The notes beneath the pieces are model-generated. The model was not told the DNA's origin. It did not search any database and saw only the letters and a list, made by a program, of their open reading frames with translations. The position numbers and the translations under genes were made by a program. DNA of 41,462 nucleotides, from the IMG/VR virus record IMGVR_UViG_2778261298_000002, positions 1-41,462 of that record; one strand, written 5' to 3'. Positions 26,479 to 32,320 of the stretch are shown here, in pieces. The stretch's first letter is position 1; each line of letters begins with the position of its first letter. The stretch is from a virus (lineage: Duplodnaviria > Heunggongvirae > Uroviricota > Caudoviricetes).

Positions 26479-27276
26479 TCAATGAACGGTATCGAGCAGC
26501 TTTAACAGCTCAGGGAATCGGGATTCGAAGAAATGCGGCTGCGTCTCACGCGGATTTGCGGGACTGGTGATATTCTTGCCGAACATGCAGCCTTTCGCTG
26601 TCAGCGACCAGAATTTTTTGATGTTGTTAATCGCTGTACGGCTGTATCGTTCGCGCTGTTCGACGATCCCCAGCTTCGCCATCTGGTGATATGCCTGATT
26701 AGCCGTAAGGCGGATACCATACTGCTTCAGCAGTGCACTCAGTGACAGCGTGGGGCGGCTTGAGCCATCAGGCGCGTCAGCAGGAGCATCAATGGCATAG
26801 CGCGGTGCCAGATTCGGTAAGCCAACAGCCTCCTGAAGTTTCTGACAGGCTCCAAGCACTGAAGAGTTAGACAGATTTAACTCCCGGCGCATAAAGTCCA
26901 GCAGAATCACACCAGCCTGCATCTTGTCAGCAGCCTGTCCGGATAATTTTTCCGGTGCGCTGGTTACCATGTCGAAAGTACGGATCACCTTCAGATGGAA
27001 TGACGGGCTGATCCACATTGCATAGGCATACACCAGTTCTTTGCAGACATACGTCCCCTGGTTATTTCCGCCACGAATAACGTTAACTGGCTCTATATTG
27101 ACCGAGTTGCAAATCTGCAACTCGCTTATTAAACGCTCAGTTTGCTCATTGCGGAGCCAGAATGCAGGCTTATGCTTATCCAGAGAACCGGCAGCCCTGT
27201 GCAGATCGTTCAGGCTGTAACGCCCATAAGCATCACGACGAACTTCAATACCATCAATGACCATCAGATTATTCAT
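26479..27276 (-). CDS. KilA-N domain protein / antirepressor-like
   Basis: 265 aa; N-terminal IDGIEVRRDAYGRYSLNDLHRAAG is KilA-N-like. Confidence 0.6.
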   Translation of the reverse strand: MNNLMVIDGIEVRRDAYGRYSLNDLHRAAGSLDKHKPAFWLRNEQTERLISELQICNSVNIEPVNVIRGGNNQGTYVCKELVYAYAMWISPSFHLKVIRTFDMVTSAPEKLSGQAADKMQAGVILLDFMRRELNLSNSSVLGACQKLQEAVGLPNLAPRYAIDAPADAPDGSSRPTLSLSALLKQYGIRLTANQAYHQMAKLGIVEQRERYSRTAINNIKKFWSLTAKGCMFGKNITSPANPRETQPHFFESRFPELLKLLDTVH

Positions 27277-27295
27277 ACTTCGTTTCTCCTCTTAA

Positions 27296-27685
27296 TCAGG
27301 CGGCTGCACCCGCCGTTTTCTCGTACTTACTGATAGTGATCTCGACCTTCCCTTCCGGGATAACCGGTCCCCACTCCACCAGCATTCTTTTCACCTGACT
27401 GTCGTCTTCCCACACACCCGCGTGGGTCAGGGCGTCAAACAGCGCCTTGTTATAGTTGTCCAGATCGCGGATCCGGTTATCCGGAGGAAACAACACGATC
27501 TCCACTGAAGCAGGTGCCGACGTTGGTTTTGGCAGACGACGTAACTGCTCAACTATTGCTGCACACGCCGCGCTCTGGAATTTGCGCCCCGCCGCGCTTA
27601 TCAGGCTCTTACCTGCAAACGCCCCTTTGTTGGGGTGTCGCCAGTACGTGTTCACGCTGGGCGGGAAAGGCAGAATCAGCTTCAT
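27296..27685 (-). CDS. rusA: Holliday-junction resolvase RusA
   Basis: 129 aa; N-terminal LPFPPSVNTYWR and RDLDNYNKALFDALTHAGVWEDDSQV match the RusA family. Confidence 0.8.
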   Translation of the reverse strand: MKLILPFPPSVNTYWRHPNKGAFAGKSLISAAGRKFQSAACAAIVEQLRRLPKPTSAPASVEIVLFPPDNRIRDLDNYNKALFDALTHAGVWEDDSQVKRMLVEWGPVIPEGKVEITISKYEKTAGAAA

Positions 27686-28008
27686 ACTTTCAGACCCCTC
27701 TCATGTAACCAGTGGGCTGCACGCAGCCTGGCGTTTTCCTCACCGGCAAGCAGTGAGCGGATAATCCCGACCGCCTCGCTGTCGTCGTCCTTCACCGCGG
27801 TATGAAGCGTTATCCCCCGGGCCACACCACGCTTTATCGTGATGACGCCTTTTTTCTCCAGTGCGCGAAGATGCTCCACCGCTGCATTCACTGAACGATA
27901 TCCCAGCATGGTTGCCACCTCCTGATTGGTTGGCGGAAAGCCACGCTCTTTCTGGTAAGAAATCAGCATATCCAGCACCTGCTGCTGGCATTGAGTTAAC
28001 GTCGTCAT
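27682..28008 (-). CDS. LexA-like DNA-binding domain protein lacking the S24 peptidase domain
   Basis: 108 aa; LTQCQQQVLDMLISYQKERGFPPTNQEVATMLGYRSVNAAVEHLRALEKKGVI resembles the LexA N-terminal winged helix; no Ala-Gly/Ser-Lys autocleavage module. Confidence 0.6.
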   Translation of the reverse strand: MTTLTQCQQQVLDMLISYQKERGFPPTNQEVATMLGYRSVNAAVEHLRALEKKGVITIKRGVARGITLHTAVKDDDSEAVGIIRSLLAGEENARLRAAHWLHERGLKV

Positions 28009-28691
28009 GCCGCCATCTCCCTGACCAGTTTTTCCGCCTGCTGGCGAACCTGCGCCAGAAAGGCCTCACCACATGCCTCAAGTTCATCGCGCCCGATGTA
28101 GCTGATTGCCGGTCCCTTCCAGGTCTTGTCGAAAACAGCAATAGCACCAGCGAAGAAAGCGCCTGTCGGTACCTGCTTCTCGTCTTTCGGGATAAACCAG
28201 ACAGGCAGTTCAAAACCAATACGCCCGCGAATAAAAGCAATATGATCTGCATTTTCCGGCCACCACACTTCGCTGGTGGCAGCTTTGATCAGGAAAACAT
28301 AGCGCCCGCCTTTATCACGCATGGCACTGGCATGCTTCATGATGTAACGCATGCCGGTGATGTATTGCCCCTCATGCTGACTGGCGCGGCTGTATGGGGG
28401 ATTACCAAAGGCAGCACCTTTAAGCTCCGCAAGACGTTCTGACCAGTCATGCGCCAGCGCGTTGTCTTCCGCCGTGTAATACGCGGCACATTTGGCGTTA
28501 TCACCGTCAGTGAACAGATCCAGAACAAACGGGCCAAACAGGGTGTTAATTCCCCAGAAAATGTTGTCCGGCGTGCGCCACTGATCGCCCACTTCCTTCA
28601 GTTCATGGGCTGGTTTGTTCCGCAGTTCCACCAGCGCCTGGCAATATTTATTACTCATTAAGCCCCCACGTAATTCCCTGACAGATACCAC
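28005..28691 (-). CDS. Phage N6-adenine DNA methyltransferase (Dam-type, NPPY)
   Basis: 228 aa with FGNPPYSR catalytic motif. Confidence 0.75.
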   Translation of the reverse strand: MVSVRELRGGLMSNKYCQALVELRNKPAHELKEVGDQWRTPDNIFWGINTLFGPFVLDLFTDGDNAKCAAYYTAEDNALAHDWSERLAELKGAAFGNPPYSRASQHEGQYITGMRYIMKHASAMRDKGGRYVFLIKAATSEVWWPENADHIAFIRGRIGFELPVWFIPKDEKQVPTGAFFAGAIAVFDKTWKGPAISYIGRDELEACGEAFLAQVRQQAEKLVREMAA

Positions 28692-29152
28692 TCTTCACCC
28701 GATGCAGCGCGCTTGCTGCTTTTCCGTAAGCACCGCTCACGACGCGCCAGAAAATTGTTTCGCTCTTGCTGGGAGTGGCTTTCACGGAATGCCGCCATCC
28801 ACACCGTTGCAGCACGACGGTATAAGCCCCTGGACTCCAGTTCTTCCGCCTGGCGGGTCAGGCACAAAATCTCCCGCGGGTCGTTAGTGCCGACATAGAA
28901 ATTGCGCACAGGTCTGGTTTCACGAACTGGTTGCGGTTCCGCCTCCTGCGCTCTCTCAGTCAGGCGCGGGAAATGTCTGCGTGTATCCCCTTCACAACGG
29001 TGAGCCACACGACCACTCTGACGTAACTTGCTTGCTGACTGCAGAACGCGCTGCCGTGAGTAACCTGCAAAAGCATCCGCAATGTCTCCGGAAGTACACC
29101 CCGGATGGGCTTCAATGAATTTCTGAACTTCATTCAAAAGACTCATGATCAC
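28658..29152 (-). CDS. Hypothetical regulator (possibly ANR/PerC-like)
   Basis: 164 aa downstream of the replication gene; family assignment is a weak recollection. Confidence 0.35.
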   Translation of the reverse strand: MIMSLLNEVQKFIEAHPGCTSGDIADAFAGYSRQRVLQSASKLRQSGRVAHRCEGDTRRHFPRLTERAQEAEPQPVRETRPVRNFYVGTNDPREILCLTRQAEELESRGLYRRAATVWMAAFRESHSQQERNNFLARRERCLRKSSKRAASGEEWYLSGNYVGA

Positions 29153-30090
29153 CCCCTGAATCCTGCCGGGATCTGGCTGTAGTCCACGTTGTCGTAACTG
29201 GCTTTGAAGTACGGGTCTTCGCGTTTTTCGGTGTACGTGCTGACGGACGGCGATAAGCGCAGGGAAAGCTCATCCCATTTTTCCCGCAACTTCGACGGGC
29301 TGAGCACGTTACGGCACCAGAACGGATCGCGGCTGACGCGGCTGTACATCTCGCAGATTTGTTTGTGAGTACGACCATCCTGCACACACATCAGGCGAAT
29401 TTCGTTTGCCCAGGCTGTCCAGTTCGGTTCTTTGGGACGAACCACCTCGCCGTCACATTCGGCAGCCTGCTCGTACAGGGCGATGATTTTTTTCCAGAGC
29501 CACTGTGCGCAGGTCAAATCATCCTGCGTTCCCCACTGGCGCTTTTTAGGGCTGAATACAACCGCATCAGGATGGCGAGTTAAAAAATCCTGTTCATCCG
29601 TCTGCGTGTCCGGTTGCGAAGCGTCCGGACGAGAAGGTTTTTTATCTGACGGATCATGTTTTGATTTTACTGACGGATCCCCGCCAGATTCTGACGGGTG
29701 AAAACCCGCTTTTTTGCCAGATTTCGACGCATCAAATTTTGACGGGTCAGATTTTGATGCGTCAGATTTTGACGGGTCAGAATCTGACAGTTGAGAAAAT
29801 GCCGCTGCCTGAAGCTTCGCAACGTTAAGCTGATAAACATTCGACGCATTGCGGTTACCCTGGCGACGCGCCTTACGCGTTAACCAGCCTTCTGCTTCCA
29901 GCCGTGCGATAGCCGTTCTGACGGTACTCATCCCCGCGCCAATCTGGCGGGCAATGGTTTCAATTGATGGCCAGCACACACCTTCGTCATTACTGAAATC
30001 AGCCAGGCGGGCCATAATTGCCACGCTGGATAATTTCATGCCTGATGCAGCGCAACCATCCCATACATAGCCGGTTAATTTAGTGCTCAT
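29149..30090 (-). CDS. Replication initiation protein (O-like, N-terminal winged HTH) with internal iterons
   Basis: 313 aa; N-terminal wHTH (..WPSIETIARQIGAGMSTVRTAIARLEAEGWL..); central pentapeptide repeats (SKSDA/SKSDP/SKFDA) encoded by tandem DNA repeats. Confidence 0.6.
   Translation of the reverse strand: MSTKLTGYVWDGCAASGMKLSSVAIMARLADFSNDEGVCWPSIETIARQIGAGMSTVRTAIARLEAEGWLTRKARRQGNRNASNVYQLNVAKLQAAAFSQLSDSDPSKSDASKSDPSKFDASKSGKKAGFHPSESGGDPSVKSKHDPSDKKPSRPDASQPDTQTDEQDFLTRHPDAVVFSPKKRQWGTQDDLTCAQWLWKKIIALYEQAAECDGEVVRPKEPNWTAWANEIRLMCVQDGRTHKQICEMYSRVSRDPFWCRNVLSPSKLREKWDELSLRLSPSVSTYTEKREDPYFKASYDNVDYSQIPAGFRG
29650..29795. repeat. Iteron array (putative replication origin) inside the replication gene
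   Basis: At least 5 tandem 15-bp units (tcagattttgacggg / tcagattttgatgcg / tcaaattttgacggg) plus degenerate copies upstream. Confidence 0.55.
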
Positions 30091-30438
30091 GACCGACCTC
30101 TATTTCCCTGAATTTACGACGAAACTGTTCGAGCGGGCTGAAGCACTCATGCTCATAGCCTTCGCGGAGGTAGATAACTCGTTGTGTTTCCGGCTCCCAA
30201 CGAATGACTCTGACGGGCACTCCGTAGTGATCTTTGAACCAGCGGTTAACTTGTCGCAAAGGACTGTCTCCTTCTGCCGGTTGAAATCACCCACAGCCCA
30301 CTCAGCAAAGCTGTGGGTTACAATTTCCCTGTCACCTGGTACATTAACTGCATAGCAATACTCCACCTTCGCTTTTCCACCCGGTACAGGAAGCGCAATC
30401 AGTTGCGAGCGACGGTAGTGTGTTGTTAAACTGTTCAT
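30080..30438 (-). pseudogene. Hypothetical early gene, apparent frameshift (or sequencing error)
   Basis: N-terminal 50 aa ([51 protein letters not shown]) in one frame; protein-like C-terminus (..[53 protein letters not shown]) in another, ending in a stop that overlaps the replication gene ATG. Confidence 0.4.
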
Positions 30439-31019
30439 GCGTTAGTTTCTCCACAGTCACGACACGCCACGGCGCCCGGAGCTGCACACTCGCGGGCGTC
30501 ATTACTTTCTGAAATGCAAAAGATTTTGTAGACCAGTGCTGCATGCTCCTGCAGCTTCGAAATTGAGAGATACAGCTCGTCGTTAATTGCTGTCTTCTCA
30601 TGCGGTTCCACCACACCGTCTTCGATTGCCGAACGAATCTGTCTGGAATAACTGCCAATCTGTTCAATGACTTCCAGCAGGCGCTTGTTAATATCGGCGT
30701 TGTCCACATCCTCGACGTCAGGAAGAGACACAAAGACGCCATTTGCAGACTGCGCCACAGCGTCAGCAATGAAGTGAGTTCCACCAGCACGTTGCAAAAC
30801 CATTGCCCATCCCAGCGGGAAAATCTGATCGCCATCGGCACGAAGGCGGTTAAATAATGCGTTCTCTGTTACATCCAGCCAGTCAGCAGCTTCAGCGTAA
30901 CCACCCGGCAACGCCGCGATAGTTTTTCTGACAGCTTTCACGTACCACTCAGGCTGTTTTTCTACTTTCCAGTGATGCTTACCCACGGCTATCTCCTTAA
31001 AACTGTGGTTACTTTCCAT
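30435..31019 (-). CDS. Early regulatory protein (YdaT/CII-like, uncertain)
   Basis: 194 aa directly downstream of the cro-like gene. Confidence 0.4.
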
Positions 31020-31257
31020 CTGATAAGTCTTTAATCTTTTGAAAAATATCTGGACGTAATTTTTCTTTTGATACGCCAGTGGTCATTTCAATAAATATCG
31101 AGAGTTTTGCAGGGGGACGCTTTTCTCTGTTCAACCAGTTCCAGACATGTTGTTGCTTTACTAAACGACCACTGCTGGCTGTGAGCTTCCGAGCCAATTC
31201 TGATTGACCACCAGCCAGAGCGATTGCCTCTGATAAGGCTAATTGCTCAGGTGTCAT
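31009..31257 (-). CDS. Cro-like HTH regulator (YdaS-like)
   Basis: 82 aa; HTH (SQSELARKLTASSGRLVKQQHVWNWL); divergent from the CI-like repressor. Confidence 0.65.
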   Translation of the reverse strand: MTPEQLALSEAIALAGGQSELARKLTASSGRLVKQQHVWNWLNREKRPPAKLSIFIEMTTGVSKEKLRPDIFQKIKDLSDGK

Positions 31258-31394
31258 AGCTTTCTCCTATCTGTAAGTAGTAAAGTTGTTGATAACTTCG
31301 ATTATACAACTACAACAACTTTCATCACAACTTTTAGATGTTGGAAAGCTAAAACATAAAGTTGTAACCTCAATAAAAACGAGGGGGATATGTT
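31258..31394. promoter_or_regulatory. Immunity operator/promoter region (OR-like) between cro-like and cI-like genes
   Basis: Repeated half-sites AAGTTGT/ACAACTT; minus-strand promoter TTGTGA-18-TATAAT (rc of 31325-31330 and 31301-31306) toward cro; plus-strand TTGATA at 31289-31294. Confidence 0.6.
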
Positions 31395-32081
31395 GTGAAA
31401 ACATTGGCAGAAAGACTAAAAAGCGAAAGAGAAAAAGCAGGAATGAGTCAGGCGCAACTAGCTGAAAAAATTGGGCTTTCACAACAATCCGTAGCGAAAA
31501 TCGAGAATGGAGAAACTCAACAGCCTCGGAAAATTAAAGAGATTGCTAAAGTGTTAGGGGTTTCTCAAAAGTGGTTGCAATTGGGCATTGAGGATAACGC
31601 GTCTTTCCCAGACCTTGTTGTAAAGGAGGCTGAAAGTACAGCATTAGATCCTGACATTTTTGCAAACATTCCAGTCCTAGATGTCGAGTTATCAGCGGGT
31701 AATGGATGTTTGGCTGAAATAGTTGAATCAACTGTAGACTGGTTCCCGCTAAGAAGGATTGATTTAAGAAAAGCTGGTGTATGTGTCTCCAATGCAAAGA
31801 TCGTAAAAATTTGGGGCAATAGTTTACTACCTGTACTTAACAATGGAGATTTTGTTGCTGTTGATGTTTCCCAAACGGTTCCTATTCGTGATGGGGATCT
31901 TTATGCCATACGTGATGGCGTATTACTTAGAGTTAAAATATTGATCAATTTACCTGACGGTGGTCTGATTCTAAGAAGTTTCAATAAAGATGAGTATCCA
32001 GATGAAATACTCACCTTCGAAGATAGGCGTTCAAGAATTCACGTTATAGGTAGAGTATTCTGGTCATCGCGCACTTGGTAA
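31395..32081 (+). CDS. CI-like repressor (HTH XRE domain plus S24 LexA-like peptidase domain), GTG start
   Basis: 228 aa; N-terminal HTH (MSQAQLAEKIGLSQQSVAKIENGE); C-terminal S24-like domain. Confidence 0.8.
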   Translation: MKTLAERLKSEREKAGMSQAQLAEKIGLSQQSVAKIENGETQQPRKIKEIAKVLGVSQKWLQLGIEDNASFPDLVVKEAESTALDPDIFANIPVLDVELSAGNGCLAEIVESTVDWFPLRRIDLRKAGVCVSNAKIVKIWGNSLLPVLNNGDFVAVDVSQTVPIRDGDLYAIRDGVLLRVKILINLPDGGLILRSFNKDEYPDEILTFEDRRSRIHVIGRVFWSSRTW

Positions 32082-32267
32082 TGCATCAAAAAACCTTCCT
32101 TCAGAAATTTAGTTACCATTATTACCCGCCTTTTCAATCTTCCTCCCGTGATTTGAGAGTTTCCAATCACGGAAGGAAAGTGTCCCTTGTGTAATTAAAA
32201 GCGCATCGTCCATACAACCTCCTTTTTTGATAACCCTTGCCCTCATTTCACATCCGTCAAAACCACA

Positions 32268-32320
32268 TAAAGTTGTTGACAACAACCAAAACAACAACTA
32301 GATTACAACTTAAAGATGTT
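32268..32320. promoter_or_regulatory. Second operator/promoter cluster (OL/PL-like) driving the early-left operon
   Basis: aaagttgttgacaacaaccaaaacaacaactagattacaacttaaagatgttg repeats the OR half-sites; plus-strand TTGACA (32276-32281)-17 bp-TAGATT (32299-32304). Confidence 0.55.

Follow-up and report, generated by a model that had tools for sequence, protein, structure and literature searches.

A replication origin very probably embedded in the initiator gene of an SfII-like phage, and a DnaT-type tail that may recruit the host helicase loader

Introduction

How does a lambdoid phage that encodes an O-type initiator, but no helicase loader, begin to replicate its DNA? The question is raised by a 41,462-nucleotide stretch of Caudoviricetes DNA (IMG/VR record IMGVR_UViG_2778261298_000002; the stretch as a whole is referred to here as the window), the minus strand of which carries a replication initiator gene with an array of 15-bp repeats in its interior. 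A first-pass annotation, made from the letters alone, had taken the repeats for the iterons of an origin lodged within the replication gene and had remarked that no clear helicase-loader gene follows. Phages of this kind are not rare: 34 of 314 lambdoid phages (~11%) have an O gene only, and their type of replication is called "not yet understood" (PMC12315714, Genome Res 2025); neither an origin nor iterons nor a mechanism of loading is given for them in the available text of that paper.

The phage type has already been sequenced, its initiator has an O-family annotation, and O-only modules are in the literature. In the literature searched we found no description of the iterons, of their covariation with a winged-helix domain, or of the DnaT-type tail with which the initiator ends. 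From comparison with related loci we conclude that an SfII-like phage very probably uses the 15-bp repeats as the binding sites of its replication origin, placed within the gene for its own initiator. A fuller account, which we consider probable if well short of secure, is that the initiator gene contains the vegetative origin and that the C-terminal tail of the protein docks host DnaC, or the DnaB6-DnaC6 complex, in which case no phage loader would be needed.

Results

Six palindromic sites within an O-type gene

Repeat finding returned six copies with spacings of 33, 15, 15, 15 and 15 bp: five stand in tandem, the sixth is set apart by 33 bp, and two half-site copies (CTGACGGATC) occupy 29646-29655 and 29670-29679, which agrees with the at least five tandem iterons plus degenerate copies noted at first pass. 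Tandem Repeats Finder (TRF) places a period-15 array of 4.3 copies at 29718-29781, and the same array scores 88% at period 30 (a 30-bp super-period). The iteron unit is a 13-bp imperfect palindrome, GTCA-N5-TGAC, with 2 bp between neighbouring units; inverted-repeat pairs were detected in the units, and several sites fit the 13-mer pattern on both strands. With up to two mismatches allowed, GTCAGATTTTGAC matches the six sites listed in Table 1 and nothing outside the array in the whole window. Counted over both strands there are seven matches, compared to 1.11 +/- 1.04 expected, and none of 100 shuffles reached seven.

All six sites are inside the gene, at nt 303-408, within a linker that is predicted to be disordered and so should tolerate any peptide that the DNA sites impose. 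In the frame of the gene the array encodes SD-SDPSK-SDASK-SDPSK-FDASK-S, the Ser/Asp/Lys-rich pentapeptides of the earlier description. That the gene is O-like was likewise confirmed: the protein matches PHROG 391 ('replication initiation O-like') with E = 1e-135.

By sequence comparison the C-terminal domain of the initiator is homologous to that of lambda O (BLASTP E = 7e-26; over aa 166-277 it shares 39% identity with many lambda-type O proteins) and the N-terminal domain is not. BLASTP aligns aa 70-277 only, with significant similarity confined to the C-terminal part, and a Pfam search of the initiator returns no lambda O N-terminal family. It reports HTH_36 at aa 23-70 (E = 4e-11), and in the AlphaFold2 (AF2) model the N-domain has the order H-H-H-H plus a beta wing, with a predicted local distance difference test (pLDDT) score of 63-88. 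Foldseek searches of the PDB gave weak matches of the N-domain to MarR/ArsR-like winged helix-turn-helix (wHTH) folds only, and none for the AF2 C-terminal domain; a PDB sequence search with the family profile gave marginal MarR/GntR wHTH matches only. Since the sites are palindromic and the fold is MarR/ArsR-like, the N-domain may be suspected of binding as a dimer.

DnaA-assisted initiation was considered and is unsupported: the window contains no perfect DnaA box (TTWTNCACA), compared to 4.0 expected.

Constraint on the repeats as DNA

A tandem array inside a gene might be nothing but slippage-prone, low-complexity coding sequence for a flexible Ser/Asp/Lys linker, without any function as DNA; the predicted disorder of the linker fits such an account, as does the number of repeats, which ranges among homologs from 0 to more than nine. 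The comparison set, 80 genomic loci encoding relatives of the initiator plus phage records, bears directly on this explanation. Iteron units with up to three mismatches to the 13-mer were counted in 67 distinct homologous genes having the recognition helix ST[VI]RT: all 349 units are in the same frame and fall within gene nt 240-560, and only three 13-mer matches in these genes are out of frame or outside that interval. Units were also picked by amino-acid pattern alone (S-x-S-[DE] in the linker). In these, the serine codons are TCA in 182 of 192 cases (95%) and TCT in 175 of 192 (91%), compared to 15% and 8% elsewhere in the same genes; lysine is AAA in 108 of 108 (61% elsewhere), and aspartate is GAC in 81% (47% elsewhere). 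A position-frequency matrix shows wobble positions to be conserved like the rest, the variable bases being those of the 2-bp spacers between palindromes. Near-fixed synonymous codons, palindromic units and variation that falls in spacers rather than at wobble bases all speak against a mere coding repeat.

The same is true of the way in which a change of DNA-binding domain brings another repeat sequence at an unchanged period and position. N-domains with the helix STVRTAI go with the repeat GTCARAATCTGAC, those of the KTTVSAAI / NTVTAAI group with YCAA-N3-TTGR, and a homolog with STVITAI (L028) with TTCAGATTCTGAA, in each case at a period of 15 bp; unrelated N-domains (SfV orf39 type and others) go with different repeats at a period of 22-24 bp. 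Whatever the N-domain type, the arrays occupy one and the same region of the gene. In turn, the SfII-type N-domain and its iterons are found paired with four kinds of C-terminus: lambda-O-like, Phg_2220_C, phiP27-type and AWxxIW-tailed. Such switching is the pattern to be expected if the N-domain reads the repeats. Because synonymous codons are fixed, the units are palindromic and the sequence covaries with the DNA-binding domain, the repeats behave in these comparisons as DNA elements and not only as a peptide repeat; that they are coding sequence and nothing more seems to us extremely improbable.

The phage phiP27 initiator L17 (L006, 2851-2970) has the helix STVRTAI together with the iterons TTCAGAATCTGAA, in which the outer base is changed symmetrically in both half-sites, the change being that of L028. 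That base must therefore be specified by something other than the recognition helix, for which the wing is a candidate.

A conserved AT-rich block beside the array

Promoter-distal of the iterons is a short, moderately A+T-rich segment (74% A+T) that ranks among the top 2% least stable in the window. It belongs to a conserved block that reads GGGGATCCGTCAGTAAAwTCAA-N5-GATCCATCAG and holds the two half-sites, each with a GATC (29652-29655 and 29676-29679, 24 bp apart). Across ~56 genes the column identity of the block is at least 90%, wobble positions included. The block is retained in the KTTVSAAI group despite the different iterons there, and is therefore unlikely to be a site for the N-domain; we propose instead that it may be the unwinding region, possibly one sensitive to methylation. 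A Dam-type methyltransferase gene is frequent downstream in related loci and modules. It is conceivable, though speculative, that the phage Dam is linked to the GATC pair at the origin, with methylation exerting control as in P1 oriR or oriC.

The repeats could instead be initiator-binding sites that serve autoregulation, copy control (by titration or handcuffing) or transcription attenuation in the early operon, with initiation elsewhere. Plasmid iterons do serve initiation and control alike. However, no other cluster of iteron sites occurs in the 41 kb, the same architecture recurs with unrelated DNA-binding domains, and the layout – iterons and after them an A+T-rich, if modest, segment, both inside the linker of an O-type gene – corresponds to that of lambda ori, a proven origin. 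We regard an origin elsewhere as decidedly unlikely.

No helicase loader in the window

The minus-strand order of genes is cro-like, cII-like (Phage_CP76), a 112-aa YmfM-like open reading frame (ORF), the initiator, a YfdN/PerC-like gene, Dam, LexA-like and RusA. Searched by tblastn with lambda P, DnaC-like and DnaB-like queries, the whole window gave nothing (all E > 0.1), and annotation of the window region shows no P, DnaC or DnaB homolog: the initial remark that no loader gene follows the initiator thus stands.

Phage LLS, a published O-only example, encodes an O protein with the N-domain, the iterons and the tail (...KIPEGFRG) of the SfII-type class, its C-terminal domain being of Phg_2220_C type and not lambda-O-like. 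In LLS and in Kp4878-1 a methyltransferase gene comes directly after O. A second loader-less class (19 loci, including L020 and L044) has the same N-domain and iterons and ends ...AWxxIW[KQ]xxAQ...; it occurs in Providencia, Proteus, Yersinia, Rahnella, Ewingella and Buttiauxella, and no P, DnaC or DnaB was found within the 10-kb loci.

The C-terminal tail and the gene downstream

The initiator ends ...DYSQIPAGFRG, which fits the pattern [IV]PxGF[RT]G and its last nine residues and those of E. coli DnaT (SQIPPGFRG) agree at eight of nine positions. In the family alignment most members end ...DYSxIPxGFRG; two Pantoea members end ...DFDNTDWIYGIEE..., resembling the ...DLTNTDWIYGVDL of lambda O. 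A P gene (PF06992) was predicted to follow the initiators of these two members only, and this was borne out.

The tail was scored against the downstream gene in 83 related loci. A lambda P homolog is next in all 10 loci with tryptophan-containing tails (DWIYG..., HWNSPEAWENTL). With IPxGFRG tails (52 loci) P is found in none, a DnaC-like gene in two and no loader in 50; the 19 loci with AWxxIW tails have no loader. In the reverse test, 80 viral contigs were fetched via their DnaC-like gene. They yielded 77 upstream initiators, of which 76 end [IV]PxGF[RT]G, usually in the longer form ...RDxNxISxPDxxIPxGFRG, and the proteins belong to eight unrelated N-terminal families and four unrelated C-domain families; one family (L091/L097) shares 44% identity with the SfII protein across aa 25-313, a stretch that takes in the tail. 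Where lambda P is the downstream gene, O ends TDWIYGV[DE]L in 71 of 71 cases; the reverse search with lambda P behind this count yielded near-identical lambda-type loci only, and the diverse evidence for the pairing of tryptophan tails with P is the 10 loci above.

The host offers the same combination. E. coli dnaT is directly upstream of dnaC (L171), 107 DnaT orthologs show almost no variation in the IPxGFRG core of the tail, and between a phage DnaC-like protein (L077) and E. coli DnaC the identity is 51%. Some phage initiators upstream of DnaC-like genes (L122, L103, L151) are 44-48% identical to DnaT aa 85-179. For the initiator of the window we claim no domain homology to DnaT, because hhalign of the family alignment against DnaT aligns the tail alone, with a probability of 11%; nor does Pfam report the DnaT DNA-binding domain (PF17948) for the initiator, though it is detected in DnaT itself. 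One further initiator (L081:3777-4679), with an SfII-type N-domain and iterons and a DnaC-like gene after it, ends ...DIPEGFNQNLPATNQGGTDDDFI, in which an acidic C-terminal tip resembling that of SSB is joined to the IPxGF motif.

The end of a gene may be conserved as the Shine-Dalgarno sequence of the next. In loader-less loci, however, the peptide is kept while its codons vary: Pro is CCA, CCG or CCT, all four Gly codons occur, and Arg is AGG, CGG, CGC, AGA or CGT. This synonymous variation indicates selection on the peptide, and not only on a ribosome-binding site, and we reject the latter as a sole explanation.

One of the small adjoining genes might instead supply an unrecognised loader function. 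Both the YfdN/PerC-like gene downstream and the YmfM-like gene upstream abut the initiator gene, and a YmfM-like homolog is directly upstream in 33 of 52 IPxGFRG loci, compared to 2 of 10 P-type loci (where it is distant in the cases listed) and 0 of 19 AWxxIW loci; it adjoins the initiator gene in no locus with another tail type. In related records the ORF bears the annotation YmfM. But tblastn detects no YmfM-like ORF in 19 of the 52 IPxGFRG-tailed loci, and YmfM (e14 ymfM) reportedly inhibits cell division when induced by the SOS response (bioRxiv 10.1101/2020.11.19.390815); despite its frequent adjacency we reject it as a replication partner. The YfdN-like gene, for its part, is absent from Kp4878-1, LLS and many otherwise equivalent modules, its product resembles a wHTH-PerC regulator, and comparison with lambda P by BLASTP gives only noise, whereby it is rejected as a hidden analog of P. 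We can give a loader among these neighbors hardly any credence.

Proposed course of initiation

The explanation that we favor – an origin in the initiator gene, and a tail that docks the host loader – would run as follows. Dimers of the winged-helix domain would bind the six 13-bp imperfect palindromes (GTCARAWYTGAC type) and so build an O-some-like complex; the duplex would open at the adjoining AT-rich block with its two GATC sites (29639-29682); and the DnaT-type tail, to judge from the correlations between tail and loader, would capture host DnaC or DnaB6-DnaC6 at the opened origin. Capture of DnaC-DnaB by the tail would make a phage loader gene unnecessary. In the initiator the lambda-type tail ...TDWIYGVDL is replaced by ...SQIPAGFRG, the tail type of DnaT and of DnaC-linked phage initiators.

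An origin of this description could also be served without contact between tail and DnaC: by way of a DnaT-like tail that links the initiator to PriA/PriB restart, by direct binding of the C-terminal domain to DnaB, or by recombination-dependent replication. Some plasmid Rep proteins bind DnaB directly. DnaT itself acts within a PriA-PriB-DnaT preprimosome, and how it recruits DnaB/DnaC "remains unknown" (PMC13377028 and PMC4132743, in their available text); RecBCD/Chi-dependent recombination aids LLS, whose initiator is of this type (PMC12315714); and the 19 loader-less relatives of AWxxIW type have no DnaT-type tail. On the other hand, the phage tail tracks a DnaC-like gene and not any PriA/PriB-related gene, and it is missing from every initiator that has lambda P as its loader, though host DnaB is the same in both cases. 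In published structures it is the C-terminal domain of DnaT that contacts PriA and the linker that contacts PriB, no role for the tail being described in the available text (PMC13377028). Loading without a contact between tail and DnaC we judge rather unlikely, while taking it seriously.

Several observations count against the docking of DnaC by the tail, or against the origin as drawn. The AT-rich segment is modest (74% A+T over 30 bp), that of lambda having ~80% A+T over 40 bp, and the 15-bp spacing (~1.4 helical turns) sets adjacent sites on different faces of the helix, unlike in lambda. In DnaC-linked loci the tail codons TTC AGG GGG are nearly fixed and resemble a ribosome-binding site of the loader. 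The association of tail and loader may be inflated by relatedness and also by physical linkage, because the tail corresponds to 60 bp adjoining the loader gene and mosaic recombination would move both. The partner of the tail could be DnaB, PriA/PriB or another protein. The 19 relatives of AWxxIW type mentioned above belong here too, as does phiP27, in which L17 is followed by DnaC-like and DnaB-like genes and yet has no such tail. Finally, a 2026 study of the preprimosome favours the N-terminal domain of DnaT for recruitment of DnaB/DnaC, and the tail goes unmentioned in its available text (PMC13377028).

Genomic context

The coordinates of the features are collected in Table 1. Shigella phage SfII (KC736978 / NC_021857), taken in the opposite orientation, matches positions 27000-30997 of the window at 98% identity, and the initiator is 100% identical by tblastn to SfII_41, which is annotated "O protein family protein" or "primosomal protein". 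For the cro/cI segment (~31000-32300) the phage collection searched contains no close match; the immunity genes lie in 30950-32300. Because the replication module is 98% SfII and the cro/cI segment is unmatched, the window is, as far as sequence goes, an SfII-like mosaic phage with a different immunity region, and its immunity specificity is possibly different from that of SfII and undescribed.

Table 1. Features of the initiator gene and its surroundings (positions in the window; for iterons, the last column gives the sequence).
Feature	Position	Strand	Evidence or sequence
Replication initiator gene, 313 aa, O-type	29149..30090	-	ORF call, tblastn, PHROG 391
N-terminal winged-helix DNA-binding domain (~aa 1-96; aa 1-98 in the AF2 model), putative iteron reader	29803..30090	-	Pfam HTH_36, AF2
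Predicted disordered linker (aa 103-161), holds iterons and AT-rich block	29608..29784	-	AF2 pLDDT <50
C-terminal helical domain (aa 162-280)	29251..29607	-	BLASTP to lambda O; AF2 pLDDT ~90
Tail motif SQIPAGFRG (aa 305-313), proposed DnaC/DnaB-DnaC docking peptide	29152..29178	-	Match to DnaT
Iteron 1 (first in gene direction)	29776..29788		GTCAGAATCTGAC
Iteron 2	29761..29773		GTCAGATTTTGAC
Iteron 3	29746..29758		GTCAGATTTTGAT
Iteron 4	29731..29743		ATCAAATTTTGAC
Iteron 5	29716..29728		GCCAGATTTCGAC
Iteron 6, 33 bp from iteron 5	29683..29695		GCCAGATTCTGAC; homologs conserve GTCAGAATCTGG
Conserved DNA block, two CTGACGGATC half-sites each with GATC	29646..29682		Column identity in homologs
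Least stable 30-bp stretch of gene, candidate unwinding element	29639..29669		Nearest-neighbour stability scan, GC profile
YfdN-like gene (N-terminal wHTH and PerC-like C-terminus), downstream of initiator	28658..29152	-	Pfam PerC E = 2e-9
Dam-family N6-adenine methyltransferase gene	28005..28691	-	Pfam Dam E = 8e-46
YmfM-like 112-aa ORF upstream of initiator	30100..30438	-	PHROG 1170; no Pfam match
cro-like gene	31009..31257	-	
cI-like gene	31395..32081	+	

The related SfII record contains an IS4-like element (ISSfl9), IS911 remnants, the serotype-conversion genes gtrABII and an acyltransferase gene, and in it Mu-like tail genes are joined with a lambdoid early region. The initiator family is common in prophages of Enterobacterales (E. 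coli, Shigella, Salmonella, Klebsiella, Pantoea and others), and near relatives of the replication region also occur in records of Stx2-converting phages. Two E. coli chromosomes (L012 and L013, at ~2.44-2.47 Mb) have a copy of the gene that has lost its 5' end (aa 79-313 remain, 100% identical), with a yfdN-like gene after it; the copy, probably a CPS-53 yfdO-type remnant, retains the iteron region and the tail, its DNA-binding domain being gone.

Discussion

What the tail may mean

An origin inside the initiator gene is the textbook design of lambda, to which the iterons described here would add a new specificity class. The tail goes further: its correlation with the loader gives one testable answer to two questions, namely how lambdoid phages without a loader replicate and how DnaT functions. 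As a tentative extension, which may well prove wrong, we suggest that ...PDxxIPxGFRG is a portable docking motif for DnaC or DnaB6-DnaC6, that O-only phages are origin-bound mimics of DnaT, that DnaT uses the same element, and that dnaT-dnaC is a domesticated module. If this is true, loader-less phages such as SfII and LLS would capture host DnaC-DnaB directly; the same peptide would be the long-sought element by which the PriA-PriB-DnaT preprimosome recruits DnaB/DnaC; and the host operon would descend from a phage initiator-loader module that had lost its origin-binding domain. Tractable systems exist for both phages, LLS growing on E. coli K-12 and SfII on Shigella flexneri.

Brezellec et al. 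(2017) noted that DopC, a domesticated O-like protein, has a DnaT C-terminal domain, without drawing the link between tail and loader. No earlier statement of that link was found in the literature searched on DnaT, O and DnaC. The string IPPGFRG is absent from the literature searched, which leaves out most subscription journals, and the listed matches to PGFRG are unrelated (collagen and others).

Comparison with known systems

Iteron plasmids (pSC101 RepA, R6K pi, RK2 TrfA, P1 RepA) have what is proposed for the window, namely a winged-helix initiator that binds several repeats beside an A+T-rich region, and the use of host DnaB-DnaC; GATC sites are present in P1 oriR as they are in the origin proposed here. 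The window differs in having no perfect DnaA box and in that its sites are palindromic and not directional, and there is no detectable sequence relationship between its initiator and plasmid Rep proteins (a sub-threshold RP-C match only, in Pfam).

The closest parallel is lambda, and the arrangement does mirror that of lambda ori, as the first-pass annotation had suggested: in both, the origin is inside the initiator gene, between the segments for the N- and C-terminal domains; iterons with internal dyad symmetry are followed by an A+T-rich stretch, though in the window this is a short and only moderately A+T-rich candidate; the gene lies in the early rightward operon after cro- and cII-like genes; and the C-terminal domains are homologous. 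The suggestion that iteron sequence and period are not those of lambda also held, the window having six 13-bp sites at 15-bp spacing and lambda four 18-bp sites at 20-24 bp. Further differences are the N-domain, which is HTH_36 and has no BLASTP match to the N-terminus of lambda O, and the tail, which is DnaT-type where that of lambda is ...TDWIYGVDL. In lambda the P-DnaB complex docks on the C-terminal part of O; the window has no P gene.

O-only modules such as that of LLS share the single O-type gene, with no helicase or loader (PMC12315714, available text). The O protein of LLS also shares N-domain, iterons and IPxGFRG tail, and differs in its Phg_2220_C C-terminal domain. Modules that combine an initiator with a DnaC-type gene (L091-L170, L077; phiP27 L17-L18-L19) differ in having a DnaC-like loader of their own – and, in phiP27, a DnaB-like helicase – neither of which the window encodes. 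The likeness is in the initiators: that of L091/L097 is similar over most of its length, at the 44% identity given above, and phiP27 L17 has an N-domain that is 60% identical, together with closely related iterons.

The comparison with DnaT and the dnaT-dnaC operon is of another kind. The window has no adjacent DnaC gene and its initiator no detected PF17948, and DnaT reaches forks through PriA/PriB, where the initiator would reach an origin through iterons. What the two have in common is the extreme C-terminus, SQIPAGFRG in the window and SQIPPGFRG in DnaT, which is the end of the protein in both; and the order of genes in the host operon is that of the phage modules in which tail-bearing initiators stand directly upstream of DnaC-like genes.

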